From Acaryochloris marina MBIC11017 (GTDB lineage: Bacteria > Cyanobacteriota > Cyanobacteriia > Thermosynechococcales > Thermosynechococcaceae): a DNA stretch of 32,000 bases. The stretch covers positions 6,150,001-6,182,000 of the forward strand of contig NC_009925.1 in assembly GCF_000018105.1 (NCBI RefSeq). Reading direction: 5' to 3'. This document shows, one piece after another, positions 14,561 to 31,897 of this stretch. Both the position numbers and the translations under genes were made by a program. The stretch's first letter is position 1. The number at the start of each line of letters is the position of its first letter. Below the pieces are notes generated by a model, which searched no databases, had not been told where the DNA came from, and worked only from the letters and a program-made list of their open reading frames with translations.

Positions 14561-15796
14561 TTGGATTTTGATGCGCTGGTAGTTGGAGCAGGCCCCGCTG
14601 GGATGATTATTGCGGCGGCTTTGGCTGAGCAAGGCGTAAACGTCGGCAGCCTGACGGCTAGTCCGCTGAGGCAAGTCTGGCCGAATACCTACGGGATCTG
14701 GCGGGATGAACTAGAAGCGTTGGGATTAACGGACTTATTAGGCCATTGTTGGGACAATTGTGTTTCCTATTTTGGTAAAGGGGAAGTCAACCACGGTCGT
14801 GCCTACGGTTTATTCGACAAAGTCAAGCTGCAAAACCACCTGCTGGCCCAATGCGAAGCTGGGGGAGTGACATGGCAGCAAGGTGAGGCCACCCAGATAG
14901 AGCATGATCATAAGCACTCAATCGTCACGACGGGGGCGGGGGAATCCATACGGGTCAGGGTGGTGATTGATGCCAGCGGCCACAAGCCGATGTTTATCCA
15001 GCGGCCAGATCAAGGGGCGGTTGCCTTTCAAACGGCCTATGGTATCGTCGGACATTTTTCTGCACCTCCTGTTGAGCCGCAACAATTCGTGCTTCAGGAT
15101 TTTCGCAGTGAGCATCTATCGGTGACCGAACGGGCCACCGAACCGCCGACCTTTCTCTATGCCATGGATTTTGGGGATGATGTCTATTTTGTGGAAGAGA
15201 CATCTCTGGCGATGGCCCCTCCAGTCAGTTTTGAACTCCTAGAGCGACGCTTGCACCAACGATTGGCTGCCCGAGGTGTTCAGGTGACTGCTGTCCAGGA
15301 GGTAGAACGCTGCATCTTTCCGATGACGCTCCCCTTGCCCGATCTCCATCAGCCTGTGGTGGCTTTTGGTGGGGCGGCGAGTATGGTACACCCGGCTTCG
15401 GGGTATATGGTTGGGGCGCTGCTGCGCCGTGGACCGGGTTTGGCCGCAGCGATTGCCACCGCCCTCCAGGATGCTCAAGCTGGGCCAGCCGAGATCGCCC
15501 GGAAGGCATGGCAGGAGCTATGGAATCGAGATCGCCTCCGCAAGTACTATCTCTATCGGTTTGGCCTGGAGAAGTTAATGCGGTTTGATCAGGGCCTATT
15601 AAACCAGCATTTCGATACGTTCTTTAGTTTGCCTAAAAATCAATGGTCGGGATTTTTAGCCGATACCCTATCGACACCCGAGTTGGTTGGAGTGATGATG
15701 CGCTTATTTGCCATTGCCCCCAATTCTTTGCGCTGGGGGTTGCTGCAAATGCCGGGCCAGGAAAGCAATCTGCTTTGGCAATCAGTCGCTTCCTAA
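14561..15796 (+). CDS. crtL: Lycopene beta-cyclase, cyanobacterial CrtL type
   Basis: N-terminal FAD/NAD fold DALVVGAGPAG. Conserved CrtL blocks are WPNTYGIW, FLYAMDFGDDVYFVEETSLA, FGGAASMVHPASGYMVGALL and GLEKLMRF. At 411 aa it matches the known CrtL length. The start is TTG. Confidence 0.9.
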   Translation: MDFDALVVGAGPAGMIIAAALAEQGVNVGSLTASPLRQVWPNTYGIWRDELEALGLTDLLGHCWDNCVSYFGKGEVNHGRAYGLFDKVKLQNHLLAQCEAGGVTWQQGEATQIEHDHKHSIVTTGAGESIRVRVVIDASGHKPMFIQRPDQGAVAFQTAYGIVGHFSAPPVEPQQFVLQDFRSEHLSVTERATEPPTFLYAMDFGDDVYFVEETSLAMAPPVSFELLERRLHQRLAARGVQVTAVQEVERCIFPMTLPLPDLHQPVVAFGGAASMVHPASGYMVGALLRRGPGLAAAIATALQDAQAGPAEIARKAWQELWNRDRLRKYYLYRFGLEKLMRFDQGLLNQHFDTFFSLPKNQWSGFLADTLSTPELVGVMMRLFAIAPNSLRWGLLQMPGQESNLLWQSVAS

Positions 15797-16343: not shown

Positions 16344-16349
16344 TAGTTA
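16344..16349. repeat. Left copy of the direct target-site duplication of the IS5-like element (TAGTTA)
   Basis: TAGTTA(G) at 16344-16349 is repeated at 18047-18052, immediately outside imperfect IRs. Confidence 0.65.
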
Positions 16350-17930
16350 GGGTTTGCTGAGAAAGTAAATTGAGCAAATTCCATGCATCAAATCGTACAA
16401 GCAACCCATTTGTGACGGCCAGAGCCATATCCTTTGACTGGCCCTAGCAAAGCCCCAAGGAAGTCCTGACAGCTCCATAACGCTTTCCAAAACCAGCAAT
16501 CCCACCCCAAAAATGAACGATAAAAAGTGGCTGAGCCACCGCTCCAGATTCATGACCAAGAACGTGATAGCAATCGCACTGGCAGCCGTATCCGCTAACT
16601 TCGCCATCACTCGATTCAAGCCAAACCGTCGCTTGGCCTGCCCAAACTTACCCTCAATCTGGACCCTCACCTTTTCATCCTCACACGCTTGTTGCTTGAG
16701 TTGGGTCTGTACTTGTGGGTCTTGTTGAGGTCTTCCTAACGGCGGTCCACTCAAGCGAATCCCCCGAGCTTTACACCATCGTCGATTAGCCCGAGTCCGA
16801 TAGATTTGGTCAGCATGGACTGAGAAAGGATAATGGCCAAAGCGACGACGAAAGGCTTCCACTTGATGTTGAAGATGCTGGGATTCATTGAACGCATCCC
16901 AACTCAAGCGCTCCAGAAACACACATCCACGCACACAACTGAGGGATAGCTTGGCTCCAAACTCAACGGGTGTTCCAGCTTTGCCTCGGACCATCGGTCG
17001 GACATGAGGCTGACTCATACTGACAATCCGGTCGTCCACTCGACGTACTGACTGTTGATACATCCATTCTTGCTGTCGAAAGACTTCATGAATCACCAGC
17101 AACAGACGGTACTGCCGCCGGGACAATTGGGATAGGGAAGCCCCCAATGTTATCAACCCATCAATATGGGCTAGATTGCGACGCACATAGCCCAACTGCT
17201 GACGAATCCCTTTACGAATCAGCTTGCGGCTCGGTTGACGTTTTTTGGCAATGGCCAGATAGGCTTTGCGGGCCTTCTGGCGGTAGGTGCGAGGTTTGCA
17301 CTTGAGGGACAGCATGACTTGAGCATATAAAGCATCGAGGATGGCTTCGCTTGCTTTGCGGGCATCATTGAGCAAATCCAAGTCTGTCGGATAGCGAATA
17401 TCGGCTGGTGCACAGGTCGCATCTATCAACAATTGGCCCTGGTTGGGAGGGGCAGGAGGCTCATCTTCATCATCGTCAGAGGGAGGAGATGACTCAGGGG
17501 ACATCGCCACAGGAGACCCCTCGGATGCCAGCACAGAGTCCACGACTGCGTCATTGACTTGAGCTAGCAGCTCTAGATTCAACCGTTGGCGAAAGTGAAC
17601 CAGCATGGAGGCATCAAACGGAGCACTCTCTCGATATTCACTAAACCCCAGAAAGTACTGCAAGTAGGGGTTCTCTCGAATCTGTTCTACGGTCTCTGCG
17701 TCGGATATACCCAGTTTCTCTTTGATGATTAAGGTCCCTAAGGCCACACGAAAGGGTTTGGCAGGTGCCCCCATGGTCTGACTGAATTGGTCTGCATATT
17801 CTGACTCAAAGCTCTCCCAAGGAATCAACTCGGCTAGTTTGACCCAGCGATTCTCTCCTGAAAGTTTCCCTCCAAAGGGCAAGTAGAAGTTCTCAAAGGA
17901 CAGTTGACCGGGGGATGGACGGCGATACAT
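16347..17930 (-). CDS. IS5/IS1182-family DDE transposase
   Basis: The N-terminal block QLSFENFYLPFGGKLSGENRWVKLAELIPW and ENPYLQYFLGFSEY are typical of the long IS5-type transposases (InsH-like N-terminal domain plus DDE domain). Confidence 0.9.
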   Translation of the reverse strand: MYRRPSPGQLSFENFYLPFGGKLSGENRWVKLAELIPWESFESEYADQFSQTMGAPAKPFRVALGTLIIKEKLGISDAETVEQIRENPYLQYFLGFSEYRESAPFDASMLVHFRQRLNLELLAQVNDAVVDSVLASEGSPVAMSPESSPPSDDDEDEPPAPPNQGQLLIDATCAPADIRYPTDLDLLNDARKASEAILDALYAQVMLSLKCKPRTYRQKARKAYLAIAKKRQPSRKLIRKGIRQQLGYVRRNLAHIDGLITLGASLSQLSRRQYRLLLVIHEVFRQQEWMYQQSVRRVDDRIVSMSQPHVRPMVRGKAGTPVEFGAKLSLSCVRGCVFLERLSWDAFNESQHLQHQVEAFRRRFGHYPFSVHADQIYRTRANRRWCKARGIRLSGPPLGRPQQDPQVQTQLKQQACEDEKVRVQIEGKFGQAKRRFGLNRVMAKLADTAASAIAITFLVMNLERWLSHFLSFIFGVGLLVLESVMELSGLPWGFARASQRIWLWPSQMGCLYDLMHGICSIYFLSKP

Positions 17931-19015: not shown

Positions 19016-19591
19016 ATGCCAAACACATCAAGAACAAAACGGGTGATGATCATGAATCAAACCGTCCCACAACAACCAGGGCCGAAAGAACGTGCAAAAG
19101 CCGGTTTCGGCATTGTCGATGAAATGTTGAAAGCCTATAACGGTGGCGAAACCTACGTGAAACGCTTTTTGACCTTTGTTGGTATTGGCGGTGTGATTAC
19201 CGGGACGGCCTTAGGCTACAGACCTCATGTGAGTCCTCAAGCACCTCAAGCTGAGCCGATTATTATCCAAATGACTCCTCCAACCTCATTGCCTGCTACT
19301 TCGCCAGCCAAACCTGAGTCCTCTCCAGCCAAGCCAGCAGAACCGTCCACGACTCAGCCTGTCGCTGAAATCCAACCTGAGCCGTCGCAAAAAACTCCAC
19401 CGTCTCAGCCGAATGTTCGGCCTGCACCACTTCCTAAGCCTGTGATTGCCACCCAACCTGTCCCATCCCACGTTACAGTTCAGAAACCCTCCATCGTCAT
19501 TACTCCTCCTATTCTTAAACGCCCTGCACCATCCTTACCCTTTGAAGTGGACCAATCAGACCAAGATGATAGGTTTGAAATTGATGATTAG
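19016..19591 (+). CDS. Hypothetical single-pass membrane protein with a Pro-rich region
   Basis: ATG start, one hydrophobic helix (FLTFVGIGGVITGTALGY), a long P/S/A/Q-rich stretch containing SPAKP twice, and an acidic C-terminus. Confidence 0.45.
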   Translation: MPNTSRTKRVMIMNQTVPQQPGPKERAKAGFGIVDEMLKAYNGGETYVKRFLTFVGIGGVITGTALGYRPHVSPQAPQAEPIIIQMTPPTSLPATSPAKPESSPAKPAEPSTTQPVAEIQPEPSQKTPPSQPNVRPAPLPKPVIATQPVPSHVTVQKPSIVITPPILKRPAPSLPFEVDQSDQDDRFEIDD

Positions 19592-20184: not shown

Positions 20185-21168
20185 TCACACGCTAATGACA
20201 ACCTTCCCTTGGGCGTGACCTGTTTCTAAATATCGGATGGCTTCCGGGACTTGGTTCAGTGGGTAGTGCCTGTCAATGACAGGTGTAACTTGCCCAATTT
20301 CGATCATCTCTTTCAAAAGGAGTAGATCGGCCTTGTTGCGTTTCATATCCAGAGAGGTAACCTTCTGCTCCACGAACGGTGATATCAGGAGGGCTTTGAG
20401 GAAATGCCCCAGTGGTCCCAGGATGCCACTCCCTTCTGGCCCACCAATGAGGACATATCTTCCATGCTGGTTCATCACCCGAACGCACTCGAATAGCGAT
20501 CGATTGCCAATCATATCCAGCATCAGGTCACAGCCCGCTTTGCTTAAAGCTGGATCCCGCGTGAAGTCTGCTTGAGTGTAGTCAATCACCCGGTCTGCAC
20601 CAATGGAATACATCCTCTCCACATTCCGAGTACTGCACACACCGATGACCACAGCACCAAACGCTTTCGCAATCTGAACAGCATAGGTGCCGACACCCCC
20701 TGAGGCTCCGTTGATCAACACTGTCTGCCCAGACTGAAGCTGTCCTGCATCTCGCAATCCTTGCAACGCGGTTAATGCTGCGAGAGGAACACTAGCGGCT
20801 TCCTCGAAGGATAGATTGGCTGGCTTGGATACTAGTGCCTCCTGTTCCTGGACACAACTATATTCAGCAAAGGAGCCATCAATACGACCATAGACTTCAA
20901 CTCCAGGCTGAAACTGGGTGACGTGTTTGCCTACGGCTTCTACCTGTCCAGCAAGCTCAGCGCCGAGGCTGGGATCTTTGGGTTTGAGTAGACCGAAGAA
21001 CAGTCGCAGGAAGTAGGGGCTGCCCCGCATGATGTGCCAATCTTTAGGATTTGTGGCTGCTGCGCGAACTTTGACTAGGACATCATGGTCGCCAATGACA
21101 GGCTTTTCAATCTCTTGGAGTTGAAGTACGTCTGGAGAACCATATTGGTAGAAATGAATTGCTTTCAT
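20185..21168 (-). CDS. MDR-superfamily NAD(P)H-dependent oxidoreductase (quinone oxidoreductase / zinc-type ADH-like)
   Basis: Rossmann motif VLINGASGGVGTYAVQIAKAFGAVV and a GroES-like N-terminal region (VLVKVRAAATNPKDW). A GAGGAAG Shine-Dalgarno sits in the 14-nt gap after the halogenase stop. Confidence 0.85.
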   Translation of the reverse strand: MKAIHFYQYGSPDVLQLQEIEKPVIGDHDVLVKVRAAATNPKDWHIMRGSPYFLRLFFGLLKPKDPSLGAELAGQVEAVGKHVTQFQPGVEVYGRIDGSFAEYSCVQEQEALVSKPANLSFEEAASVPLAALTALQGLRDAGQLQSGQTVLINGASGGVGTYAVQIAKAFGAVVIGVCSTRNVERMYSIGADRVIDYTQADFTRDPALSKAGCDLMLDMIGNRSLFECVRVMNQHGRYVLIGGPEGSGILGPLGHFLKALLISPFVEQKVTSLDMKRNKADLLLLKEMIEIGQVTPVIDRHYPLNQVPEAIRYLETGHAQGKVVISV

Positions 21169-21182
21169 GGGTTTCTTCCTCG

Positions 21183-23219
21183 TTATTGGTTGTTTGTGGA
21201 CTGAATGTTGCAGGGAGTTTTAATGGCAAAGGTGGGGAGATCGCCCGACATCCTCACATCAACAACGTCACTGACAAAACTGCTACAGTTGAGTTGAAAC
21301 TGGGTTGGGTTAGCAAGAACGTTGATGAGGCTGTGGTCTGAACGATTTTCAATCGAGAATCGGTAGCTTTGAGGGATAGACAGATAGGTTGTTACCAGGG
21401 TTGCAAGTGTCAGCGGCATTACTCTGCTGACTGCAGCACTCCACCTCACTGGATGGAGCAATCCTCTATTCCATAGTTTGAGATCTCGTTTGAACTGCAG
21501 CAGTCGTTGGGAATACTTTATCCGCTCCCGCAGATAGAAGCTCAGAAAGAACGGTAAAGTGCGATCTCCGAAAAAGTGAGTTTGGTATTGCCCCGTTCCC
21601 ATAAAACCTTTCTTGGACCTTAAAAGTCGGGGATGAAGCTTGTTACTCGGGAGATGATTTTTCCCATTCAGCACTGCCTTGAAGACCTGCGGCATCCAGG
21701 ATGCCTGTTCAAGCTGCTGAGTCATCTGCTGTGCTAACTTCGGTATATCTCGGCTTAAGGTCGTTCTATCCACCAGGGTATAGATGTGCTGGGCCAACTG
21801 CTCAAACTCCGGGAAACCACCGCCTGCTAACCTCAGCGTTTGGAGCTGCTGATCATACTCTTGTCGGTTTATTGCTAGTGCACGGCTACTCGTCAGCTTC
21901 ACTAGCTCCAGATAAGCGCCCGTCAACCAAAGAACAGAGAACGGTGACCATAATCGGTAATCTGAAAAGGATTGGTAGGCATGGGTGACTAACTGATCAT
22001 TAGCTTGAATATAGGCCAGGGTTAGCGCCTCGACAGATCGAAAGTAAGCCGCCGAATAATCGCCCGTTTCTTTCGCGGTCAGTAATCGCTCTGCCAGTGC
22101 AGACGTACAGGCCAATGCGGTGTAAAGCCCTTTGGAGAAGAGCGGATCGATAAACCCAGCCGCTTGCCCCAGGAGGCAGAAGCGATCGCCCACCACCTGC
22201 TTGGCACTGTATTGAATCCGTCCGGTGCGGGTCCAGTTCCGTACGGCTTTCGCCTGCCGAAATTGCTCAGCGATGCTCGGAAAGCGCTCAATGAATTGGA
22301 AAAACTCGACTTCGGGACTCAGTTCCGGTTGAGCCGGATATACCCTAGGGTCCAGCATCAACCCCACACTGCACAGGGGATTTGTGGATTTGGCGTGGTT
22401 ATCAAAGGGAATCACCCACAGCCAACCCCCCTTAAAGACGTGATGCAAAGTGCCTTCGGAAAGCTGAAACGGTAGCTGATAGGTTTCCTTTGGGGCTGTC
22501 ACCTCATGGAAGCAGGGGACATCAACCATATGGGTAAAAATGGCCCGCGAGTGAGTCTGCAAATTATGGTGCCGCAGATCAAACTGCTCAGCGAGTAGAG
22601 AGCGAAAGCCTCCCGCATCAACGATATAATCGGCCTCGAACTGTTCCCCAGATTGGGTTAGCAGTGCCACTCCGACTTCATTAATCTCCACTGATTGCAC
22701 CGGAGTATTTTGCATTACCTGTGCGCCATAGCGAATCGCTACCGTCATCAAAAAGTAATCGGTGTCTTGCCGATAGAGATGTAGCTCGTGACCGTAGGGT
22801 TGTTTCGGAATCACCGCCTGAAGAGTGCGCTGTTGATCGAACGGTTGTCCCTCGCTGTGGTGGGCAAAGCTGAAGTGGCGTTTGACGCCGTGGGAGGTGC
22901 CGATGCGCTCGAAGTAGTTTTCAGAACTGAAGTAGGCTAATTCTGGGATGTCGTAGCGCTCGGAAAGCGATCGCATCATCTCAGAGGTTTCTAAAATCAT
23001 CGACTCGCCAATGGCAAATTTGGGATGACTCCCGGCCTCAAAGAGAATGACCTTGAGTCCCTGGCGAGCCAGAATTGCCCCCAGGGTGGACCCTGCAATT
23101 CCAGAACCGATAATGGCTACGTCGATTCTACCGACAGGTAGACGGTGACCTGCATTTTTTTGAGCCGTTGTTGAGTTTATAGGCTGACTGATTGGGGGAG
23201 AGGCATTAAGGGGTTTCAT
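21183..23219 (-). CDS. Flavin-dependent halogenase-like protein with a C-terminal extension of about 150 aa
   Basis: GxGxxG (GSGIAG, 23091-23108), the WxWxIP halogenase signature (WLWVIP, 22407-22424), the Fx.Px.Sx.G motif (FIDPLFSKG, 22128-22154), and KFAIGES. The ATG at 23219 is preceded by AGGAGA at a suitable distance. The track start at 23255 is GTG. Confidence 0.8.
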   Translation of the reverse strand: MKPLNASPPISQPINSTTAQKNAGHRLPVGRIDVAIIGSGIAGSTLGAILARQGLKVILFEAGSHPKFAIGESMILETSEMMRSLSERYDIPELAYFSSENYFERIGTSHGVKRHFSFAHHSEGQPFDQQRTLQAVIPKQPYGHELHLYRQDTDYFLMTVAIRYGAQVMQNTPVQSVEINEVGVALLTQSGEQFEADYIVDAGGFRSLLAEQFDLRHHNLQTHSRAIFTHMVDVPCFHEVTAPKETYQLPFQLSEGTLHHVFKGGWLWVIPFDNHAKSTNPLCSVGLMLDPRVYPAQPELSPEVEFFQFIERFPSIAEQFRQAKAVRNWTRTGRIQYSAKQVVGDRFCLLGQAAGFIDPLFSKGLYTALACTSALAERLLTAKETGDYSAAYFRSVEALTLAYIQANDQLVTHAYQSFSDYRLWSPFSVLWLTGAYLELVKLTSSRALAINRQEYDQQLQTLRLAGGGFPEFEQLAQHIYTLVDRTTLSRDIPKLAQQMTQQLEQASWMPQVFKAVLNGKNHLPSNKLHPRLLRSKKGFMGTGQYQTHFFGDRTLPFFLSFYLRERIKYSQRLLQFKRDLKLWNRGLLHPVRWSAAVSRVMPLTLATLVTTYLSIPQSYRFSIENRSDHSLINVLANPTQFQLNCSSFVSDVVDVRMSGDLPTFAIKTPCNIQSTNNQ

Positions 23220-23484
23220 GGTTAGTTGTCTCCTTTGTGGTGCTGGGGGTAACACGAATGAGTGAAATCAGCGGTACACCTAAATCCCGCACTTTTTTGA
23301 GCAGTCCATGCAGGGCTGCCTGATCAACCACTGGGCCAGTCAACAGTGTATTGCCGTCGTCTTCTAGGATGATCGTTAGGCCCTCAAACCATGGAGTCCA
23401 GCGATCATTCAGGTGGCCCTTGATGCGAATTTCGTAAAGATCAGGTTGGCCCTGTTCTTCAGGTAATACGTGCTGATCACTCAT
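23206..23484 (-). CDS. Conserved-looking 92-aa protein of unknown function
   Basis: The ATG at 23484 gives MSDQHVLPEEQGQPDLYEIRIKGHLNDRWTPWFEGLTIILEDDGNTLLTGPVVDQAALHGLLKKVRDLGVPLISL. The gene overlaps the halogenase ATG by 14 nt. The track extension to 23580 (GTG start) runs through the repeat-rich spacer and is probably non-coding. Confidence 0.65.
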   Translation of the reverse strand: MSDQHVLPEEQGQPDLYEIRIKGHLNDRWTPWFEGLTIILEDDGNTLLTGPVVDQAALHGLLKKVRDLGVPLISLIRVTPSTTKETTNHETP

Positions 23485-23554
23485 GTTGTGCCCCGTACAC
23501 TTTGCTTGTGTAGAGCCGTTGGCTTGGCTCTTGGCTGCAATCTGAAGATATGAA

Positions 23555-23625
23555 GAGATGTGGGGAGGCGTCGTCACCACATGTGGTGAATGAGATGGTG
23601 ATTATCAATGCGAGATGTGGGGAGG
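23555..23625. promoter_or_regulatory. Candidate operator/promoter: two perfect 14-bp direct repeats flanking a perfect 16-bp palindrome
   Basis: GAGATGTGGGGAGG occurs at 23555-23568 and 23612-23625. TCACCACATGTGGTGA at 23574-23589 is self-complementary. A GATAAT hexamer (minus strand, 23601-23606) lies between them. Confidence 0.55.
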
Positions 23626-23629
23626 TGGA

Positions 23630-26362
23630 CTATAACAATTCCAATTCCGCAGCGCGTTTGACGGCGGATCTACGGTTATTAACCCCAAGTTTGCTGTAGA
23701 TGTTCTTTGTATGGGTCCGCATCGTGTTCAGCGACACCATCAGTTCGCGGGCAATTTCTGGACCGCTCAATTCGGTTCTGAGCAATTTGAGTACGTCAAG
23801 TTCGCGATCGCTTAAGGGTTCTGCTAACCCCTGAGTGACAGGTACTTTAACTTGGACATCTCTAAAGGCTCCCAGTAGCTGCAAGACATAGCTTGGAGCC
23901 ATGTCTTGCTTTGCAGCCGCTTGCAGCAATGTCATCATGGGTGGGCCTTCATCCAAGAACAGCCGAATATAGCCCTCCGGCTCAGCCAGTGTCAGAGCCT
24001 GTTGCAGGGGAACAAGGGCTACCGGGATATTGCCCTGTGCTTCCTGGGCTAGAGCCTGCAAGATGAGAAGTGCGATCGCACTCCCAATCCGCCCCCCTGC
24101 TTCTGCTGCAGTCAACAGCCGATCCAGTAGACCCACTGCCCCATGAATAGGTGGTTTCTCTGCTGGATTCTGTCGGTATTGGGTAATCAATATCCTCACC
24201 AGGGTCATATGCTCAAACTCGCGTAGGTAGCTTAGATCGTCGTCAATGGATAGATTTTGCGATCGCACCCACCCCCAGGCTTCCATCAACCGACCTTGCC
24301 GCACCCATACTCGAGCCCTCTGCGCTGCAATAGGCTGTGCAGTGGGCATTGGACTGCGATAGTAGAGCCGCTCTGCTTCATTAAGCAAATCAAGTGCGCC
24401 ATTGAGATCACCTTGGGCCTCCTTCATTCGTGCTTGGGCAATCCGCCAGCGATGCTGCCAATCCGGTAATGTCGCAGTTTCATCGAGTGCTTTGCCAGTC
24501 TGAAAAGACTGAGCGGCGGCATCCAAATCGTTCCATTCACACTGTAATTCGCTAATTCCCATATACAGATTTGCCGTCCCTCGTAGCACAGTCCCGCCCT
24601 TCTCTATGGCAATTTTCGAGAATTTCTGATAGGTCTTCAGCGCTTCGCGGAGATACCCTTGTGTCGCTCGAATTTCAGCCAGGGCATAGCCTAGGTCAAT
24701 GGTGTTCAAAACATCGCCAGCCCTCTGAAAACTCTTAACCACTTCAGTAAAGAAACGGTGGGCTGCGTCTAGATCGCCATTGGCCCAGTGGGCAATTCCC
24801 AGCAGTGAAGTAGGAGCAGCCCGCTTGATATAATCATCCTCCGGCAACAGATCGAGGGCTTGCTGGGCATATTTCAAAGTATCGGGGATATCACCTAAGG
24901 TCTGAGCTTGGTAGGCACGGGCCGCAGCGAGAGTCACTGGGAGAGCGTGAAATTCGGCTTCATTCACCACGACCATTTCAGGTTGTGATGACCCAGGTTG
25001 ATTTGAAATGTCATCCAGCCACTGTTCGATAGCCTGAAGGTGAGGCTCAGCAGCTTCCAGCTTCCCACAGCCCATCAGCGCCCAGGCATATCCTGCGTTG
25101 AGCACAGGTCGATTACAGAACAGCTCATCAGGGAGTGCCTTCATCCAGCCAATCACCGTGGCGTTTTGATACTGTCGGGTTAGATCTCGCCAGTTCAGCT
25201 CGACAAGGTTTGCGGCCCGCTCATAATTTTGAGCCGCAAAAGCATGATAAATCGCATCGGTGGGTAACCCCTGGCGCTCATACCACCCGCTTGCCTGTGA
25301 ATGTAAGCCGGATATTTGCTCGGGTTGTTCCTCAATGGCTTTAGCCTGAAGTACCTCTGCAAACAAGTGATGATAGCGATACCACTGGCGTTGATCATCC
25401 AGGGGCACAACAAATAGATTATCTCGCTCTAAGGTTTTTAAGATCTCTTGACCATTGGTTTGCTCGGTCACGGCATTACATAGAGGACCAGTCAACCGCT
25501 GCAGAATGGAGGATTGTAGTAGAAAGTGACGGATCGGTTCAGACTGACACTGTAAAACCTCTGCGACTAAATAGTCGAGAACGAAATGGTGACTCCCGGT
25601 AAACGTTTGGATAAACCGAGTTGGGTCGGTTTGGCCTTGTATAGAGAGTGCCGCTAATTGTAGACCTGCAACCCATCCCTCAGTCCGGTTTTCTAATGCA
25701 GTGATATCGTCCCTCGAAAGATTGAGACCGATTCTCTGATTGAGAAACTCAACCGCTTCTGCAGTGTTGAACCGTAAGTCTTTGACCCGGACTTCACACA
25801 ACTGACCCTGAACACGCCAGCGGGCTAAGGGGAAAGCCGGATCTTCACGGGTGGCTATCACCAGGTGCGCTTGGGGTGGGAGGTGTTCAATGAGAAAGGT
25901 TAGGGCCTGATCTACGATTGAGTTATCAACCCGATGATAATCATCTAAAACCAGGACAAACTGTTCGGGGATAGTAGTGATTTCATTCAGTAGGACGGTC
26001 AAAATGTTTTCGGTGGAGAGCGGCTGAGGAGATTGGAGAGCTGCCAACACGCTTTCTCCAAAATTGCTTGAGATCTTCCGCAACGCCGCAATTACGTAAC
26101 TCAAAAACCGTTGGAGATCGTTGTCTTCCTCGTCTAGAGATAGCCAGGTAACGGTGCAGTTATCCGAAGAAGAGGGTTCATCAGCGTAATTAGAGACCCA
26201 GTCACTAACTAACGTGCTTTTGCCAAAGCCTGCTGGGGCTGAGACCAGGATGAATTTCCGGTTCAGTCCCCCCTGCAGGTAGTCAATCAGTCGAGCGCGG
26301 GAGACCACCTCTGGGCGTGGGAGAGGGATATAAAGCTTAGTGGCCAGTATAGGGGTCGGCAT
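23630..26362 (-). CDS. MalT/LAL-type STAND transcriptional regulator (AAA ATPase, TPR-like sensor region, LuxR HTH)
   Basis: Walker A VSAPAGFGKSTL and Walker B LVLDDYH. A long helical-repeat middle region follows. The C-terminal LuxR-type HTH is LSDRELDVLKLLRTELSGPEIARELMVSLNTMRTHTKNIYSKLGV. Confidence 0.9.
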   Translation of the reverse strand: MPTPILATKLYIPLPRPEVVSRARLIDYLQGGLNRKFILVSAPAGFGKSTLVSDWVSNYADEPSSSDNCTVTWLSLDEEDNDLQRFLSYVIAALRKISSNFGESVLAALQSPQPLSTENILTVLLNEITTIPEQFVLVLDDYHRVDNSIVDQALTFLIEHLPPQAHLVIATREDPAFPLARWRVQGQLCEVRVKDLRFNTAEAVEFLNQRIGLNLSRDDITALENRTEGWVAGLQLAALSIQGQTDPTRFIQTFTGSHHFVLDYLVAEVLQCQSEPIRHFLLQSSILQRLTGPLCNAVTEQTNGQEILKTLERDNLFVVPLDDQRQWYRYHHLFAEVLQAKAIEEQPEQISGLHSQASGWYERQGLPTDAIYHAFAAQNYERAANLVELNWRDLTRQYQNATVIGWMKALPDELFCNRPVLNAGYAWALMGCGKLEAAEPHLQAIEQWLDDISNQPGSSQPEMVVVNEAEFHALPVTLAAARAYQAQTLGDIPDTLKYAQQALDLLPEDDYIKRAAPTSLLGIAHWANGDLDAAHRFFTEVVKSFQRAGDVLNTIDLGYALAEIRATQGYLREALKTYQKFSKIAIEKGGTVLRGTANLYMGISELQCEWNDLDAAAQSFQTGKALDETATLPDWQHRWRIAQARMKEAQGDLNGALDLLNEAERLYYRSPMPTAQPIAAQRARVWVRQGRLMEAWGWVRSQNLSIDDDLSYLREFEHMTLVRILITQYRQNPAEKPPIHGAVGLLDRLLTAAEAGGRIGSAIALLILQALAQEAQGNIPVALVPLQQALTLAEPEGYIRLFLDEGPPMMTLLQAAAKQDMAPSYVLQLLGAFRDVQVKVPVTQGLAEPLSDRELDVLKLLRTELSGPEIARELMVSLNTMRTHTKNIYSKLGVNNRRSAVKRAAELELL

Positions 26363-26391
26363 GATTTAAGACTCAACATCAAATGCATGGT

Positions 26392-29169
26392 CTAAATTAA
26401 ATCCAGAGCAGTTGCCCGCTTAATCGCTGCCCGACGATTATTGACATTGAGTTTGCTATAGATGCTCTTGGTATGGGTGCGAACCGTGCTCAAGGCAACC
26501 ACTAGTTCACGAGCAATCTCTGGACCAGACAGATCAGTTCTAAGCAAGCGCAACACATCAAGCTCTCGTTGGCTCAGCGGTTCAACTAGCGACTGAGCAG
26601 ATGCAGAGATAGGGGAAACAGCTTGATCCTCACGTTTTTGCCCCCAGGTCTCTAACGCAGTTAATAGCCTACCTGTGTAGCCTGGAGTAATGCCACGGGC
26701 TGCGATTTCACGCAACAGCTCCGCCATTGATGTTCCTTCTTGGGCAAAAATGCGGACATAGCCTTCTGGTTCAGCCAGGGTGAGGGCACATTTTAGGGGT
26801 GAGATCGCCCGCTCAACATCCCCTAATACCTCATATGCCAGTCCCTGAGTTACCAAAATGTCAAGTACACTCCCGTTTCTCCCTGCTGCTTGCGCCACCT
26901 GCAGGAGTCGGGCCAGCAAGTCAAGCACTTGATGAATTACATTGTCTCTGCAATGGCCCTGAGCCGATCTTTGACCATCACTTCGATACCGAGCAATCAG
27001 TACCCTCGTTAAAGTGATATGTTCATACTCTTTCAGATAGCTAAGGTCATCCTCAACGGATAGCTGACGCTCATTTGCCCAGCTCAGGGCTTCAGAGAGT
27101 TGGCCCTGCCTTACCCACATCCGCACCTTCAATGCTGCAACAGGACGCACATCAGGAATAGGGATTCGATGGTACGACCGCTCCGCCTCGTTGAGTAACT
27201 TGAATGCTTCCTCTAAATCCCCGAGCGATTCCTTGAGGTGCGCCTGCACCACGCACCAGAGATGGTCTGCTCCTGGTAACGTGGTGGCTTGCTCTCGCAG
27301 CTCCTCGCCTTGTAGCAAAAGCTGGCTGGCGGTCTCCAAATCACCCTGCTCATAGTGCAGTTCGCTGAGTGCCATCAATAGTTCCGCCGTCCCCCGTCGC
27401 CCAGGCTCACCCTGTTCTGTTGCCAGTTGCAAAGCCTGCTCACAGGTGCGGATAGCCTCTTGGAGTCGACCTTGGCCTCTCCTGATATGGGCCAAAATTA
27501 AGGTGCCACCGATCGCAATCTGGACACCGCCAATTTTCTGAAAAATCGCCAGCCCTTTAGCAAAGGATAGGTGTGCAGCCTCTAGATTTCCGCTAGCCCA
27601 ATAGGCAAGGCCGAGCAGAGATGCAGTGGTTCCGCGCTCATATGCTGCATCCTCTGGTAACAGCGCTAGGGCCTGCTGTGCATAGGTGATGGTACTCGAC
27701 ACATCACCCAACGCTTGCGCTCGATAGGCGCGGGCATTGGCGATAGAAGCCGGTAAAGACCGAAACTGTAGGTCGTCCACCACGACTCTCTCAACGGCTG
27801 GAGATTCGGTGTCCTTGTCCAGCCACCGTTCAGCATTCTGTAAACGCGCTTCCGCAGTATCCAACTGGCCGTCGTTTAGTAACACGAGGGCATAAACAAC
27901 GCTCAGGACAGGTCGGTTATGAAACACTGAGTTAGGAAGTGACTTCATCCAGCCAAATACCGTGGATTCCTGCTGACGCTGACGCATCGTGGGCCATATC
28001 CGCTCGATCAAACTGGCCGCTCGCTCGAAGTCTTTAGCAGCCAGGGCATGGTGGATGGCATGGAATAGTTGATTATTCTGCTCGTACCACTCGCTAGCTC
28101 GCCTGTGCAGAATGGAGAGGTGCTCTAACTGCTCCGCAATCGCATGGGCCTGGAGAACATCAGCAAACAGATGGTGATAGCGATACCACTGGCGCTTGTT
28201 ATCCAGCGGCACCACAAACAGATTGTCGCGCTCCAGATCCGCCAGCATGGTCTGGCTTCCTTGCTGGTTGGTGACTGCATCACAGAGTGGCCCACTCAAG
28301 CGTTCTAACATGGCGGTTTGGAGCAAAAATGTACGAACGCGATCGCACTGACGCTGCAAGACCTCTTCCAACAAGTAGTCCACTATGTAGCGGTCATCAC
28401 CCGAGAAGGCTGCGATAAATTCAGGAATGTCCTCCCGACCTTGCATTGAGAGGGCTGCAAGCTGAAGTCCCGCAACCCAGCCTTCGGTTCGGGTCTCTAG
28501 AGCAGCGATATCTGCAGGCGAAATGTCCAACCCCATCATTCGGTTGAGGAACGCTGCGGCTTCGTTTGAGGTAAAGCGCAGATCCGCAGCTCGCAGCTCG
28601 GTCAATTCTCCTCGACCTCGAAGACGGGCTAGAGGCAGGGGTGGATCAGTCCGGCTAGCAATGATCAGATGCAATTGGAAGGGAAGATGGTCCAGGAGAA
28701 ATGTGATCGCTTCCTGCACACCTCGGTTTTCAATCACATGGAAATCATCGAGGATCAGCGTCAAGTTATCCTCAACGCCATTGATCTCATTGATTAAGAT
28801 CGCCAAAACTGACTCAATGGGCGGTGGTTGTGGAGATTGCAATAACGAGAGCGATCTCTCACCTAGCCCAGAATTAATCTTCTGGAGGGCGGTGATTAGG
28901 TAGGCCCAGAAAAATGCAGAATCATTGTCACCCTGATCTAGTGAAACCCAGGTAACAAGCTGATCCGGGACAGCCGCCACCCACTCCGCCAACAGCGTTG
29001 TTTTGCCGAAACCAGCAGGGGCCGAAACGAGCGTCAGCTTGCGCTCCTTGTGAATCCGCTCAAGCAGCCTCGGACGTGAGACCAAACCAGGACGCCATTT
29101 AGGGCGGTAGAGCTTGGTCTCTAGAAGGGGGATTTCTGCGATCTCTTGCCCTGGCACATCAACCATCAA
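26392..29169 (-). CDS. MalT/LAL-type STAND transcriptional regulator, tandem paralogue of 23630-26362
   Basis: Walker A VSAPAGFGKTTL, Walker B LILDDFH, and the LuxR HTH LSQRELDVLRLLRTDLSGPEIARELVVALSTVRTHTKSIYSKLNV. It is collinear with the downstream paralogue. The likely ATG is at 29166. A 29-nt gap separates it from the next gene. Confidence 0.9.
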   Translation of the reverse strand: MMVDVPGQEIAEIPLLETKLYRPKWRPGLVSRPRLLERIHKERKLTLVSAPAGFGKTTLLAEWVAAVPDQLVTWVSLDQGDNDSAFFWAYLITALQKINSGLGERSLSLLQSPQPPPIESVLAILINEINGVEDNLTLILDDFHVIENRGVQEAITFLLDHLPFQLHLIIASRTDPPLPLARLRGRGELTELRAADLRFTSNEAAAFLNRMMGLDISPADIAALETRTEGWVAGLQLAALSMQGREDIPEFIAAFSGDDRYIVDYLLEEVLQRQCDRVRTFLLQTAMLERLSGPLCDAVTNQQGSQTMLADLERDNLFVVPLDNKRQWYRYHHLFADVLQAHAIAEQLEHLSILHRRASEWYEQNNQLFHAIHHALAAKDFERAASLIERIWPTMRQRQQESTVFGWMKSLPNSVFHNRPVLSVVYALVLLNDGQLDTAEARLQNAERWLDKDTESPAVERVVVDDLQFRSLPASIANARAYRAQALGDVSSTITYAQQALALLPEDAAYERGTTASLLGLAYWASGNLEAAHLSFAKGLAIFQKIGGVQIAIGGTLILAHIRRGQGRLQEAIRTCEQALQLATEQGEPGRRGTAELLMALSELHYEQGDLETASQLLLQGEELREQATTLPGADHLWCVVQAHLKESLGDLEEAFKLLNEAERSYHRIPIPDVRPVAALKVRMWVRQGQLSEALSWANERQLSVEDDLSYLKEYEHITLTRVLIARYRSDGQRSAQGHCRDNVIHQVLDLLARLLQVAQAAGRNGSVLDILVTQGLAYEVLGDVERAISPLKCALTLAEPEGYVRIFAQEGTSMAELLREIAARGITPGYTGRLLTALETWGQKREDQAVSPISASAQSLVEPLSQRELDVLRLLRTDLSGPEIARELVVALSTVRTHTKSIYSKLNVNNRRAAIKRATALDLI

Positions 29170-29218
29170 TTTTTTCGCTCAAGTGCCTGAGATATCTACT
29201 CTAATCGATTGAAAACCT

Positions 29219-29258
29219 ATTTGATGATAGGCCCTAATACAACACGATTTGATGGTAG
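29219..29258. promoter_or_regulatory. 12-bp direct repeat pair upstream of the first LAL regulator gene
   Basis: ATTTGATGATAG (29219-29230) and ATTTGATGGTAG (29247-29258), 11/12 identical. They lie 50-90 bp upstream of the start codon. Confidence 0.35.
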
Positions 29259-29528
29259 TACAGCAATTCTAAATTATTCATACCGCCAAGCAATAAATTA
29301 TCTGAGTTTGACACCGATCTCGGCTATACACATCCATTTCGACCAGCCAGTGCCATAGTCAAATGACGTCACGGACTCCAGTCCTGCTACATGCAGGAAA
29401 GAGTCCATTTGGTTGGACAGCGCAGGAACATTAGGACTTGACCCAGCCCTTTGCGATTCACCGAGCCGATCAGAAGAGTTGCGCGAGCCAACCTCAATAT
29501 TCCTGGGTGCAGCAAGCTATCGAAATAT

Positions 29529-29975
29529 TTAAGAACGACGCACCGCCATAAACCAGACCCACCACAGTAAGAAAAGTTGTAATGGTATGCGAAAGAACAG
29601 ATAGCGAGGGCCGTTAATATTTCCACCAAAGTCAACGGAATTTAAGGCCGCATAGATATTAGACGGAAGTACAGCAATCAAGAATGTAAGTGTCAATAGA
29701 CCATTCATACGTCTGACTGATGGCCATAAAAAGCCAAGTCCCAGAATAATTTCTATGATTCCGGTGATGTAAATGATTGGATAGCGCCCCGGAACCCATT
29801 CAGGCAGCATCTGTACCATGCCTTCGGCCAAAGCAAAATGACTGATTCCTGTGAAGATAAACAAAGCCGCAAAGGCAATACAGCCAGCGGTACGAATCTG
29901 GCGGGGACGTTGGGTGATCGCTGATAGTCCCCAAGTCACAGTAAATACGCTGAGTAGTACAACTAAAACAATCAT
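29529..29975 (-). CDS. DoxX-like integral membrane protein
   Basis: Four hydrophobic segments and DoxX-like blocks (FTGISHF, IIEIILGLGFLWP, VLPSNIYAA). Confidence 0.6.
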   Translation of the reverse strand: MIVLVVLLSVFTVTWGLSAITQRPRQIRTAGCIAFAALFIFTGISHFALAEGMVQMLPEWVPGRYPIIYITGIIEIILGLGFLWPSVRRMNGLLTLTFLIAVLPSNIYAALNSVDFGGNINGPRYLFFRIPLQLFLLWWVWFMAVRRS

Positions 29976-30054
29976 GTCGCTTCCTTATTGAGAGCTTGCC
30001 TGCCTCGTGGCGTTCGAGAAAAAGTCGTGAATTGAGTTGGATACTCTACTACAG

Positions 30055-30699
30055 TTACCAGTGCAAAATGAGTGGCATTGCAGGTCGAAAATCTTGGGTG
30101 TGCCCCAGGGCACGATGTTCTAACGTGATTTCCATCAGATGTTCACAAGCTGATTGGATGGATAGGCGATCGCACCTTGATGCCAACGCCAACACCCCGT
30201 CAGTGTCAATCGATGGTGTAGAAATGACCACCTCCGTAATCCTCTGGGAATTGCGTTCAGGTTGCGGTAGGGGTACACCCGGATTATGGAATGGGAAATA
30301 GAAACAGAGCGGTTCCAGATAGTTCTCGGAATTGGCACCCACATGGAATCCTGTCGGGAGTGGAAAGTAGTCAGGTTGATAATGCCAGCCAGGGAAGGGC
30401 ATGTCGGGGCTGGCATTATCTTTGCAGGGGACAAAAATGATGCCGAAGGGCGAGGCGGTGGGATCTGTTGCTCGCTCAGAAAAGTGCAGGTTTCGACCGG
30501 GACCAGTGTTTGCCTCATGGGCATCTCGCACCCATAGGAATTCCACCATGCCATTGGCAAAGAAAAACCGACGGTTGGCAGTGCCCTGACCGGGATGAGT
30601 GTTTCTTGAGCCTTCTCGAAAGCCTTGTTCAAGCAGTCGATCAGCCACCCTCGCGTCCGGCTCAACCAGTATAAAAACGTGATCCAGTGTCATGTTCAT
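30055..30699 (-). CDS. Glyoxalase-like (VOC-related, Glyoxalase_3-type) domain protein
   Basis: The N-terminal block LDHVFILVEPDARVADRLLEQGFREGSRNTHPGQGTANRRFFFANGMVEFLWVRD fits the glyoxalase-like domain pattern. Confidence 0.7.
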   Translation of the reverse strand: MNMTLDHVFILVEPDARVADRLLEQGFREGSRNTHPGQGTANRRFFFANGMVEFLWVRDAHEANTGPGRNLHFSERATDPTASPFGIIFVPCKDNASPDMPFPGWHYQPDYFPLPTGFHVGANSENYLEPLCFYFPFHNPGVPLPQPERNSQRITEVVISTPSIDTDGVLALASRCDRLSIQSACEHLMEITLEHRALGHTQDFRPAMPLILHW

Positions 30700-30705
30700 G
30701 GCCGT

Positions 30706-31350
30706 TTATGCAGGCTTCTTTGCCACGATGAACAGGATTTTGGCGTTACCGATGGGTGATTGATAATCCCCCGCTTGCCATTGGTAATCGATCTCAAACC
30801 CTGCATCCGTCAAACTTGTCTCTAAGTCTTTTACTGTAAAGATCTTGACTAACGGAAAAAGTCCCAAGACTTTACCCACAGGGGCAATCAGCTTGAACCA
30901 AGCCATCGTATCCCCCAGACACACTGTACTGGTGATGAAACATCCGCCCGGTTGGAGCATTTTATGGACCTGAGCGATCGCTGCTTCCTTGTTTTCGAGG
31001 AGGTGTAAAACATTCAATCCCAACACCGCATCGTAACTGCTGTCTGGGACGTTCAGCTCGTCAATGCTGGCTTGCTCAAAGGTGACGTTTAGGATGTTTT
31101 GGGCGGCGGCTTTTGCTTGAGCGATATCAATCATCTTGGATGAGAAATCGATCGCTTGGATATGGTGCACGTAAGGGGCATGGGCAATGGCCGTCGATCC
31201 GGTGCCACAACCAAACTCCAGCACGTTCATACTGGGCTGAAAATACTCCCGCGTGATTTGGAGTTTTTTCTGGTAAGCGGCTTCATCAGAGATCGGCTGC
31301 TTGGCATATTTCTCGGCGATTTTGTCCCAAAATTGGGTTGATGTCGTCAT
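30706..31350 (-). CDS. Class I SAM-dependent methyltransferase
   Basis: Motif I is VLEFGCGTGSTA, and post-I/II blocks are present (AIDFSSKMI, YDAVLGLNVLHLL, LQPGGCFI). Gaps to the flanking genes are 4 nt and 6 nt. Confidence 0.85.
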   Translation of the reverse strand: MTTSTQFWDKIAEKYAKQPISDEAAYQKKLQITREYFQPSMNVLEFGCGTGSTAIAHAPYVHHIQAIDFSSKMIDIAQAKAAAQNILNVTFEQASIDELNVPDSSYDAVLGLNVLHLLENKEAAIAQVHKMLQPGGCFITSTVCLGDTMAWFKLIAPVGKVLGLFPLVKIFTVKDLETSLTDAGFEIDYQWQAGDYQSPIGNAKILFIVAKKPA

Positions 31351-31354
31351 GGAT

Positions 31355-31897
31355 TCAGCTCCTAGGTAAAGTAGCGTCAGTTTGTGCTGCGATGGTCTGA
31401 TAGAAATAGGCGATGTCCCGGCGCGATCGCAGATGATAAACCTGCTTGGTCGCCTTCACTTGCGCCATATAGTCCCGATATTTGGGCGTTAGTTTGGTGT
31501 GGCACAACCGGACGGTGGTATAGGAATTCAGCGTCCCTTTGAGTAACGGGCTTCCCTCCGGCCAACCAGCGGGTGGCACCCAAGCCCCTTGAAGAAAGCG
31601 TTTAGTCACCCACCAGTAATGCAACAGCACGGGCATATCGAGATAGACCAACGTATCGGCTGTGGCCAAACGCGGCCATAGGGTATCCATTGAGCCAAAG
31701 CCATCCATAATCCACTGGTCCTGTTGTAATAGGGCATCGTGAGCGGCTTTAAACTCAGCGTGGGGCACTTCGCTGCCACCCGGTTGGTACTGGATGGAAT
31801 CAAGGGGAAACCAAGGGAGTCCCGTTATCTCCCCAAGGCGTTTGCTGAGGGTGGACTTTCCCCCACCCGTGTTACCAAATACAGCAACTTTGTTCAT
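31355..31897 (-). CDS. P-loop NTPase / nucleotide-kinase-like protein (topology-modulation/adenylate-kinase-like family)
   Basis: Walker A is VAVFGNTGGGKSTLSKRL at the extreme N-terminus. The size is about 180 aa. Confidence 0.7.
   Translation of the reverse strand: MNKVAVFGNTGGGKSTLSKRLGEITGLPWFPLDSIQYQPGGSEVPHAEFKAAHDALLQQDQWIMDGFGSMDTLWPRLATADTLVYLDMPVLLHYWWVTKRFLQGAWVPPAGWPEGSPLLKGTLNSYTTVRLCHTKLTPKYRDYMAQVKATKQVYHLRSRRDIAYFYQTIAAQTDATLPRS

Follow-up and report, generated by a model that had tools for sequence, protein, structure and literature searches.

We analysed a stretch of 32,000 nt from the marine cyanobacterium Acaryochloris marina MBIC11017 (GC about 50%), i.e. positions 6,150,001-6,182,000 of NC_009925.1 (hereafter the window; all coordinates are window positions), in which two tandem STAND ATPases with a LuxR-type helix-turn-helix (HTH) domain, LAL_B and LAL_A, lie directly upstream of a coupled operon encoding a 92-aa protein, a flavin-dependent halogenase and a reductase of the MDR superfamily. 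These five genes, AM1_6082 to AM1_6086 according to exact protein look-ups (AM1_6084 by gene order), are all located on the minus strand (Table 1). We show that the conserved unit is not the halogenase: it is a large ATP-binding LuxR-family (LAL) regulator of the MalT type, an operator and a protein of about 90 aa, combined with interchangeable cargo. The preliminary description of this DNA, which had the arrangement of regulators and coupled operon right, took the locus for a stand-alone halogenation module; our data place the halogenase as a rare and lineage-specific cargo of the LAL/operator/90-aa cassette, which is very widespread. We consider it probable, with considerable room for doubt, that the Acaryochloris locus is an inducible operon modifying or detoxifying a free phenolic or quinone compound under MalT-like ligand gating rather than a biosynthetic cluster; of this reading, structure and regulation are the more secure part and the physiological purpose is much less so.

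The 92-aa protein encoded by the first gene of the operon matches a hypothetical protein of MBIC11017 and belongs to a family for which neither Pfam nor NCBIfam holds a model. This orphan family is very large, numbering over 8000 hits of about 70% identity and 11,124 representatives (clusters) at 50% identity (E<=1e-3), and the cassette provides it with a genomic role. The Acaryochloris protein is 60-71% identical to 30 family members, which share 34 invariant columns and the signature YEIRxKGHL...DQAALHGLLKKVRDLG. We collected 84 loci with the small-protein gene from ENA and metagenomes (fetched loci carry L numbers), predicting open reading frames (ORFs) by a simple longest-ORF rule; the metagenomic loci are short and possibly interrelated. 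Of the 59 copies for which 450 nt or more are available upstream, 52 are preceded on the same strand by the C-terminus of a MalT-type LAL, the end of which is 109-435 nt away. On ENA contigs the genes run LAL, small protein, cargo, in some cases as two tandem cassettes, and annotated cassettes are also present on the A. marina plasmid pREC3 and on a Chlorohelix plasmid. The cargo comprises DUF4386, DUF6326, DUF4395 and DUF4389 proteins, NmrA and SDR proteins, Rce1-like proteases, an MMPL transporter and MDR proteins, the usual combination being DUF4386 or DUF6326 membrane proteins together with an MDR reductase, which gives the orphan families DUF4386 and DUF6326 a genomic context. Of the 22 loci with enough downstream sequence, 13 encode a homologue of the window's MDR protein on the strand of the small gene and no more than 5 kb behind it; MDR is a standard member of the cassette and its most frequent soluble cargo.

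The small domain is also found fused in frame to its cargo, i.e. to MDR in two cases (L154, L155), to DUF4386 in three and to DUF6326 in three. These fusions to three unrelated cargo types suggest that it acts together with whatever follows it; that it is a dedicated MDR subunit, an idea we considered, is weakened by the comparable fusions to DUF4386 and DUF6326. An AlphaFold2 model (mean predicted local distance difference test score 73.7) shows a beta-alpha-beta-beta-alpha-beta fold, and a Foldseek search against the PDB returned weak matches to HMA, ACT and Lrp-RAM domains (best E about 0.02, TM 0.4-0.6), weakly pointing to a predicted ferredoxin/ACT/RAM-like fold. In predicted fold and size the protein resembles the stand-alone ACT/RAM domains that are partners of Lrp/AsnC, from which it differs in lacking sequence similarity, the structural matches being as weak as stated. 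Its position, its conservation and the ACT-like fold together suggest a ligand-binding or feedback partner. MalT of E. coli is controlled by the small protein partners MalK, MalY and Aes, and in TraR/TraM-type circuits the small anti-activator is induced by the very LuxR-type activator that it counteracts. The latter is a feedback precedent for a small protein within a LuxR-HTH regulon, as an analogy only: unlike TraM, the small protein of the window is ferredoxin/ACT-like in prediction, occurs also fused to cargo and has no sequence or fold relationship to it.

In the searchable literature we found no description of the locus, of the cassette, of its operator or recognition code or of a halogenase regulated in this way, in agreement with the preliminary description, in which the arrangement was not recognised as a described system. 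The parts belong to familiar families; their conserved combination and the orphan family at its centre are apparently undescribed.

The operator lies in the spacer between LAL_A and the small gene. This spacer had been reported as 145 bp long and rich in repeats; the length is exact and we located the repeats, a 14-nt direct repeat CCTCCCCACATCTC present twice, 57 nt apart, and a perfect 16-nt palindrome TCACCACATGTGGTGA, for which the chance expectation is 0.12 even allowing three mismatches. Alignment of 34 distinct LAL-to-small spacers from unrelated metagenomes, the window's included, identifies the spacer as the predicted cassette promoter. The shared promoter is present in 33 of the 34, the outlier being one class-2 spacer, and follows the consensus AATCAyCAC-mTC-AATCAyCACA-TGT-rGTGATGA-CGCCTCAyCACAT-N6-GTATCCTTTGG, in which a pair of direct heptamers precedes an inverted one; a fourth heptamer, again direct, occupies the -35 position ahead of a -10-like TATCCT. 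Positions 23603-23545 of the window fit this consensus base for base and can be aligned with all but one of the 33 other spacers. We assign the spacer as the putative activator-dependent promoter/operator of the small-protein operon. The spacer is the sole heptamer cluster of this kind in the 32 kb. The promoter element is also found directly 5' of the small gene where the LAL gene is not adjacent (L001 and the pREC3 locus L165), and in L004 it precedes the first gene of an operon encoding a methyltransferase (MT), a DUF6326 protein, the small protein and a halogenase. Most loci carry a terminator after the LAL gene, which is missing in the window. Generic scans for sigma-70 promoters and terminators gave counts at or below shuffled expectation. 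A structured RNA or riboswitch in the spacer and a tRNA integration site were rejected after Rfam and ARAGORN scans of the window, both of which returned zero matches.

The three genes behind this promoter had been described as tightly coupled, beginning with a protein of unknown type. The coupling is correct: the small ORF overlaps the halogenase ATG (23219) by 14 nt, and the halogenase and MDR genes are separated by 14 nt containing AGGAA, suggesting one coupled transcript.

The two regulators have the coordinates and domains reported earlier, being paralogous LuxR-HTH STAND proteins separated by 29 nt, and they share 51% identity over their full length. Both contain a MalT-type P-loop of the pattern PAGFGK[ST]T (PAGFGKST in LAL_A, PAGFGKTT in LAL_B) and a Walker B motif with DD (VLVLDDYH in LAL_A, LILDDFH in LAL_B). 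Their NTPase domains match AAA_16 and NACHT, with AAA_16 found in LAL_B. The Pfam model TPR_MalT (PF17874) is matched by LAL_A with E 8.1e-70 (236 bits) and by LAL_B with E 4.5e-65 (221 bits; cut-off 45), and GerE HTH (PF00196) with 48 and 52 bits (cut-off 23.5). The NCBIfam MalT model PRK04841 yields E 1e-134 and 1e-127, i.e. 450 bits for LAL_A and 424 bits for LAL_B, both under the cut-off of 537, which makes them members of the MalT/LAL family and not MalT orthologues. The domain order of P-loop, arm/winged helix, TPR_MalT and LuxR HTH is that of E. coli MalT. MalT boxes are short, asymmetric and arranged both as direct and as inverted repeats, with the proximal box standing in place of the -35 element; the promoter of the window resembles E. 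coli MalT promoters in having several repeats of this kind, of which the proximal one replaces the -35 box. It differs in its half-site TCAyCAC, which is not a MalT box, in a cargo unrelated to maltodextrin use and in an operon that opens with the gene of a conserved 90-aa protein. LAL_A and LAL_B are about as distant from each other as from LALs of Chloroflexi metagenomes; they do not stem from a recent duplication.

Across the metagenome loci, the heptamer sequence co-varies with the recognition helix of the LAL HTH. Helices of the type THTQ[N/H]IY occur with TCATCA[C/T] (10 of 11 loci, at all four sites), THTNNIY with TCAACAC (4/4 at site 2), THTKNI[Y/F]..KLGV with TCAC[C/A]xC (11/11) and THTK[S/R]IY..KLNV with TCCCCAC (4/4 in the aligned set; read directly in L081/L082, L001, L004 and L165). 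LAL_A, with the recognition helix SLNTMRTHTKNIYSKLGV, falls into the third of these classes, found with TCACCAC-type operators in L104 and L107, and LAL_B, with ALSTVRTHTKSIYSKLNV, into the fourth, found with TCCCCAC operators. In the promoter of the window, sites 1-3 carry TCACCA[C/T]; site 4 and the distal site carry CTCCCCAC. As it mixes heptamer flavours matching the helices of both LALs, it may integrate two inputs, and we regard the Acaryochloris promoter as a candidate hybrid that may receive input from both regulators. In the closest halogenase-bearing relatives, L001 and L004, the regulators are of the LAL_B type and the operators purely CCCCAC. Assigning the operator class from full-length LAL identity failed: LAL_A and LAL_B are each 40-62% (mostly 52-56%) identical to LALs of every operator class, and only the recognition helix discriminates. 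The co-variation constitutes a testable DNA-recognition code for a big MalT-like subfamily and possibly a source of orthogonal switches for synthetic biology.

Two contigs, L081 (ENA contig k119_27743) and L084, each carry at least two LAL-small-cargo cassettes in tandem with differing operator flavours, being CCCCAC and TCACAAC/TCACATC in L081; in L084 one LAL is split into several ORFs. These tandem cassettes are consistent with orthogonal specificities inside one genome.

Upstream of LAL_B, the sequence ATTTGATGRTAG occurs twice (29219-29230 and 29247-29258, 28 nt apart); this repeat has no relation to the LAL heptamers, and the regulator genes may be controlled through it. No LAL-type heptamer cluster or further LAL operator was found in this region (29170-29528), nor was one found upstream of the operon encoding kinase-like protein, MT and VOC protein, the promoter of which is beyond the window end.

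The halogenase had been reported to carry all hallmark motifs of flavin-dependent enzymes, and we find these motifs and the catalytic lysine present and conserved across its clade. Its best relatives of solved structure in the PDB are CtcP (E 1.6e-112) and PltM (E 1.2e-102); the Pfam model Trp_halogenase scores 70.4 bits (cut-off 21) and the KEGG assignment is K14257. GxGxxG is present as GSGIAG at residues 38-43, each glycine being kept in 64-65 of 66 clade members, WxWxIP as WLWVIP at 266-271, with W, W, I and P invariant in 66/66, and FxDPxxSxG at 356-364; taken together, the hallmark motifs occur in 64-66 of the 66. Lys113 (HGVK), kept in 65/66, aligns with Lys98 of CtcP (HGQK); the catalytic lysine is numbered K87 in PltM and K98 in CtcP (PMC12400496). 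In every sequence feature that defines flavin-dependent halogenases of the PltM/CtcP clade, the enzyme agrees with them. It shares the FAD domain, the catalytic Lys and WxWxIP with PltM and CtcP, and largely also the PltM-type C-terminal helical region, the PltM alignment extending to residue 475. The characterised members of the clade, PltM and CtcP, act on free phenolics that are not carrier-bound, the PltM substrate being free phloroglucinol (PMC5395296; PMC12400496). Unlike PltM and CtcP, the halogenase of the window belongs to a separate clade of cyanobacteria and Chloroflexota (50-76% identity within, about 43% to Streptomyces), is encoded outside a pyoluteorin or tetracycline cluster and carries an additional C-terminal extension of about 100 aa (residues ~580-678; 21183-21480). 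This extension is common only to L002, L003, L006 and L007, three of its carriers standing in a LysR-MAPEG context, and is not present in the closest relatives with a small gene before the halogenase, L001 and L004. It gave no domain match, and a membrane anchor was rejected, the best 19-residue hydropathy of 1.27 being too low for a transmembrane helix to be called. The MDR protein matches ADH_N (PF08240), ADH_zinc_N (PF00107) and ADH_zinc_N_2 (PF13602), all above cut-offs, and falls outside the PIG3 quinone reductase subfamily (TIGR02824, 191 bits, cut-off 296.8); judged from these matches it is a generic, quinone-oxidoreductase-like superfamily member.

A scan with one genome per species yielded 423 relatives of the halogenase, mostly from cyanobacterial and Chloroflexota metagenome-assembled genomes (MAGs), and neighbours were clustered in the 80 best loci. 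Of 75 halogenase loci, 4 have the small gene directly before the halogenase, i.e. the window, L001, L004 and L008, the latter three being cyanobacterial MAGs (two of them marine-type Cyanobacteria bins), with the small gene and the halogenase overlapping in two of the three. When conservation of the gene order was examined as the preliminary description had proposed, the full order LAL-LAL-small-halogenase-MDR proved to be confined to Acaryochloris, where it is seen in several assemblies. In Nostocales (L011, L012, L016) we found the order MerR-GyrI, DUF6326, MT, halogenase, with MTs 67-72% identical to that of the window, and in L003, L006 and L007 the halogenase is encoded behind a divergent LysR regulator together with a MAPEG protein. 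These loci of other cyanobacteria, which recall MerR/GyrI-like (BmrR-type) and LysR xenobiotic-responsive operons, share with the window the halogenase clade, the MT and DUF6326, and with them the theme of a halogenase under regulation together with partners that modify small molecules; they differ from it in regulator family and operator and lack the small protein. The cyanobacterial halogenase is always found beside a one-component ligand-binding regulator, be it LAL, MerR-GyrI or LysR. Chloroflexota halogenases, 52-62% identical, have a conserved set of neighbours of their own. The set comprises VTT/DedA, a 504-aa Pyr_redox_2 protein, in some loci an ABC transporter, the halogenase itself, a YdjM/Zn-phospholipase-C-like protein, a CDP-alcohol phosphatidyltransferase and AhpC/TSA_2. 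Of 74 loci, 32 contain one or more of these neighbours and 16 contain them on both sides of the halogenase; the loci include L024, L026, L033-L035, L041, L043-L051, L057, L064, L067 and L069, with the halogenase at about 10001-11650. The lipid-flavoured character of this set hints at a membrane-associated phenolic or quinone substrate.

The module probably extends past the bounds of 20185-29169 given before. Upstream of LAL_B, four tightly packed genes on the same strand (29529-31897) encode a DoxX-like membrane protein, a VOC protein, an MT and a P-loop kinase-like protein, and the extension is suggested by genes of these kinds travelling with the cassette in other genomes as probable parts of the same toolkit. 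The conjugative plasmid pREC3 has a paralogous locus (L165; MBIC10699, 284137-300349) with the genes LAL, VOC, AraC, DUF6326, MDR, small, two DUF6326, kinase, MT, VOC and MT, which lacks a halogenase and has a pure CCCCAC operator directly 5' of the small gene. Homologues of kinase, MT and MDR flank the small-halogenase pair in L001 and L004, and an MT gene lies directly upstream of the halogenase in L011, L012 and L016. The MT of the window is 64-72% identical to the MTs upstream of the halogenase in Nostocales loci and L004; MT and halogenase may be a functional pair, e.g. in O-methylation of a halogenated phenol.

These findings are consistent with a model according to which a small molecule would bind to the TPR sensor domain of one or both LALs, followed by ATP-dependent oligomerisation as is established for the MalT family. 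The LuxR HTH would then occupy the heptamer repeats replacing the -35 box, as conservation and HTH/operator co-variation suggest, and small protein, halogenase and reductase would be transcribed as one translationally coupled unit. The halogenase, with FADH2 from an unlinked flavin reductase, would halogenate a free phenolic, the MDR protein would act on a quinone or enone, and further changes to this compound may be made by the MT and by the kinase-like and VOC proteins encoded nearby. In its types (halogenase, reductase, MT, kinase-like, VOC and efflux/membrane proteins) the cargo looks more like a set for xenobiotic response than like one for biosynthesis.

Several points weigh against this model. 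The kinds of cargo proteins are the sole ground for detoxification, and both regulation and chemistry are predicted here from sequence. The operator was assigned by conservation and co-variation among metagenomic loci that are possibly non-independent. No flavin reductase gene was found among the scanned ORFs of the window. The same halogenase clade occurs in Chloroflexota without LAL or small protein in the lipid-flavoured neighbourhood, and the fusions of the small domain to three unrelated cargo types are hard to reconcile either with a co-regulator of the LAL alone or with a subunit dedicated to one enzyme. Input from two regulators is weakened by L105 and L149, which have a CCCCAC site 4 with a single visible TCACCAC-class LAL (both being truncated contigs), and by the sister strain MBIC10699, in which the LAL_A homologue is truncated (annotated as 613- and 621-aa fragments), so that LAL_A may be dispensable. 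About three extra gene numbers separate the LAL_A homologue of MBIC10699 from LAL_B; disruption of LAL_A by an insertion is suggested.

A broader reading, which we put forward tentatively and hold to be possible though on balance doubtful, is that the cassette is an unrecognised and extremely widespread inducible switch ranging over Cyanobacteria, Chloroflexota, Nitrospira, Deinococcus and plasmids, with the small protein as its obligatory partner and the Acaryochloris locus as a logic gate of two regulators on one promoter, through which the halogenation of a free phenolic would be controlled. The small protein would be a ligand-binding co-regulator or feedback element acting on the LAL or on the cargo that follows, specificity would be determined by one or two helix residues, with K, Q or N recognising C, T or A as the fourth base of the heptamer, and many orthogonal cassettes could coexist per genome.

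The locus might instead generate a signal, with a halogenated phenolic, made by the halogenase from a precursor of the cell itself or of its neighbours, being sensed by one or both LALs in an autoinduction or cross-talk loop. PltM, a close relative of solved structure, makes chlorinated phloroglucinols that are signals acting through a transcription factor (PMC5395296), two sensors on one promoter would suit sensing of substrate plus product, and the constant proximity of the cyanobacterial halogenase to a ligand-binding regulator agrees with such a loop. Most cassettes of the family, however, contain membrane proteins and a reductase and no halogenase, so their logic is independent of a halogenated ligand, and no pathway for a phenolic precursor is encoded nearby among the scanned ORFs of the window; we consider the loop unlikely.

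Less likely still is that the locus is a satellite of a secondary-metabolite cluster, the LALs being cluster activators and the halogenase tailoring a product made outside the window. LALs of actinomycetes such as PikD, NysRI/RIII and RapH, which are large ATP-binding activators of the LuxR family and in some cases have tandem genes beside their targets, are classic pathway-specific activators; Streptomyces relatives of the halogenase (43% identity; L075, L076, L080) are encoded beside multiple halogenase paralogues and very large ORFs. The analogy to PikD and NysR, drawn in the preliminary description, fits neither the host nor the cargo: these regulators are encoded inside polyketide synthase (PKS) clusters, unlike those of the window, which has no scaffold enzyme among its scanned ORFs, a cyanobacterial host and modular, non-biosynthetic cargo. 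The absence of nonribosomal peptide synthetase (NRPS), PKS and carrier proteins reported before is confirmed by Pfam for the larger ORFs of the 32-kb window, the scan having left out short ORFs; nor did the scanned ORFs include a terpene synthase or a RiPP precursor. Fifteen neighbours at halogenase loci have at least 1000 aa, and in the six of these that were scanned, all cyanobacterial or Chloroflexota and from relatives at 50-76% identity, there is no PKS or NRPS, the six comprising WD40-STAND proteins, cyclases, a restriction enzyme and a macroglobulin. Elsewhere the LAL-small cassette drives DUF membrane proteins, reductases and transporters. The scanned window ORFs and the six large neighbours, being free of PKS, NRPS and carrier domains, led us to reject a biosynthetic cluster. 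The halogenase clade is not a typical tailoring enzyme of biosynthetic clusters. Of the earlier proposal of a halogenase acting on a free small molecule, the free substrate gains support from the free-phenolic clade and by relatives outside recognisable PKS/NRPS clusters, while the idea of a halogenase-centred unit is not retained. PltM/CtcP-like halogenases regulated as single enzymes outside biosynthetic clusters are relevant for the making or removal of halogenated phenolics in marine cyanobacteria and, as free-substrate halogenases, for biocatalysis.

That the halogenase was inserted fortuitously by rearrangement and is outside LAL control appears very improbable to us. Two DDE transposases are encoded in the window, the halogenase is rare as a cargo and the surrounding gene content varies between genomes; against this, the overlap with the small gene puts the halogenase inside the operon, the adjacency of small gene and halogenase recurs in L001, L004 and L008, i.e. 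in different MAGs, and MDR, a core cassette gene, follows downstream of the halogenase. There is hardly any case for an Avs-like STAND system of anti-phage defence or conflict in which halogenase and reductase would be the effectors. Defence systems often contain STAND NTPases with TPR sensors, and the cassette also occurs on plasmids; at their C-terminus, however, the regulators carry a DNA-binding LuxR HTH matched by a co-varying operator, and a PADLOC scan, with generic HTH, TPR and methyltransferase hits only, found no defence-system match, on which ground we dismissed the idea.

Table 1. Features of the A. marina cassette and its upstream genes (window positions)
Feature	Position	Strand	Remarks
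P-loop kinase-like protein	31897-31355	-	Pfam/NCBIfam
Class I S-adenosylmethionine (SAM) methyltransferase (MT)	31350-30706	-	Pfam/NCBIfam
VOC/Glyoxalase_3 protein	30699-30055	-	Pfam/NCBIfam
DoxX-like membrane protein, 148 aa	29975-29529	-	Pfam/NCBIfam
Region upstream of LAL_B	29170-29528	-	Intergenic, 360 nt, direct repeat ATTTGATGRTAG
LAL_B (AM1_6086)	29169/29166-26392	-	MalT-type STAND ATPase/LuxR-HTH regulator, 925/924 aa
LAL_A (AM1_6085)	26362-23630	-	Second MalT-type regulator, 910 aa
Spacer LAL_A to small ORF	23629-23485	-	Exactly 145 bp
Promoter/operator, predicted activator-dependent	23545-23629	-	Predicted to drive the small-protein operon; conserved architecture
Distal site CCTCCCCACATCTC	23625-23612	-	Extra copy of the fourth site
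Site 1 AATCACCATCTC	23603-23592	-	Direct heptamer
Sites 2 and 3, palindrome TCACCACATGTGGTGA	23589-23574	-	Direct and inverted heptamers
Site 4 CCTCCCCACATCTC	23568-23555	-	Overlaps the -35 position
-10-like TATCTT	23550-23545	-	
92-aa protein (AM1_6084)	23484-23206	-	First gene of the operon; tag deduced from gene order
Flavin-dependent halogenase (AM1_6083)	23219-21183	-	678 aa, PltM/CtcP clade
MDR-superfamily NAD(P)H-dependent reductase (AM1_6082)	21168-20185	-	327 aa

The remainder of the window encodes functions of other kinds. The DDE-family transposase genes at 219-1637 (+) and 16347-17930 (-) flank the window centre, which suggests a rearrangement-prone region. A lycopene cyclase of carotenoid metabolism (14561-15796) is separated from the cassette by a transposase. 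A 191-aa proline-rich ORF (19016-19591, +), without a family match, is convergent with the MDR gene, 593 nt separating their ends. A separate signalling operon comprises a 1169-aa WD40-repeat protein (8312-11821, -), which overlaps the downstream gene of a hybrid GAF histidine kinase/receiver (6660-8315, -) by 4 nt, followed by a free-standing receiver (6191-6640) and another kinase (4347-5240).

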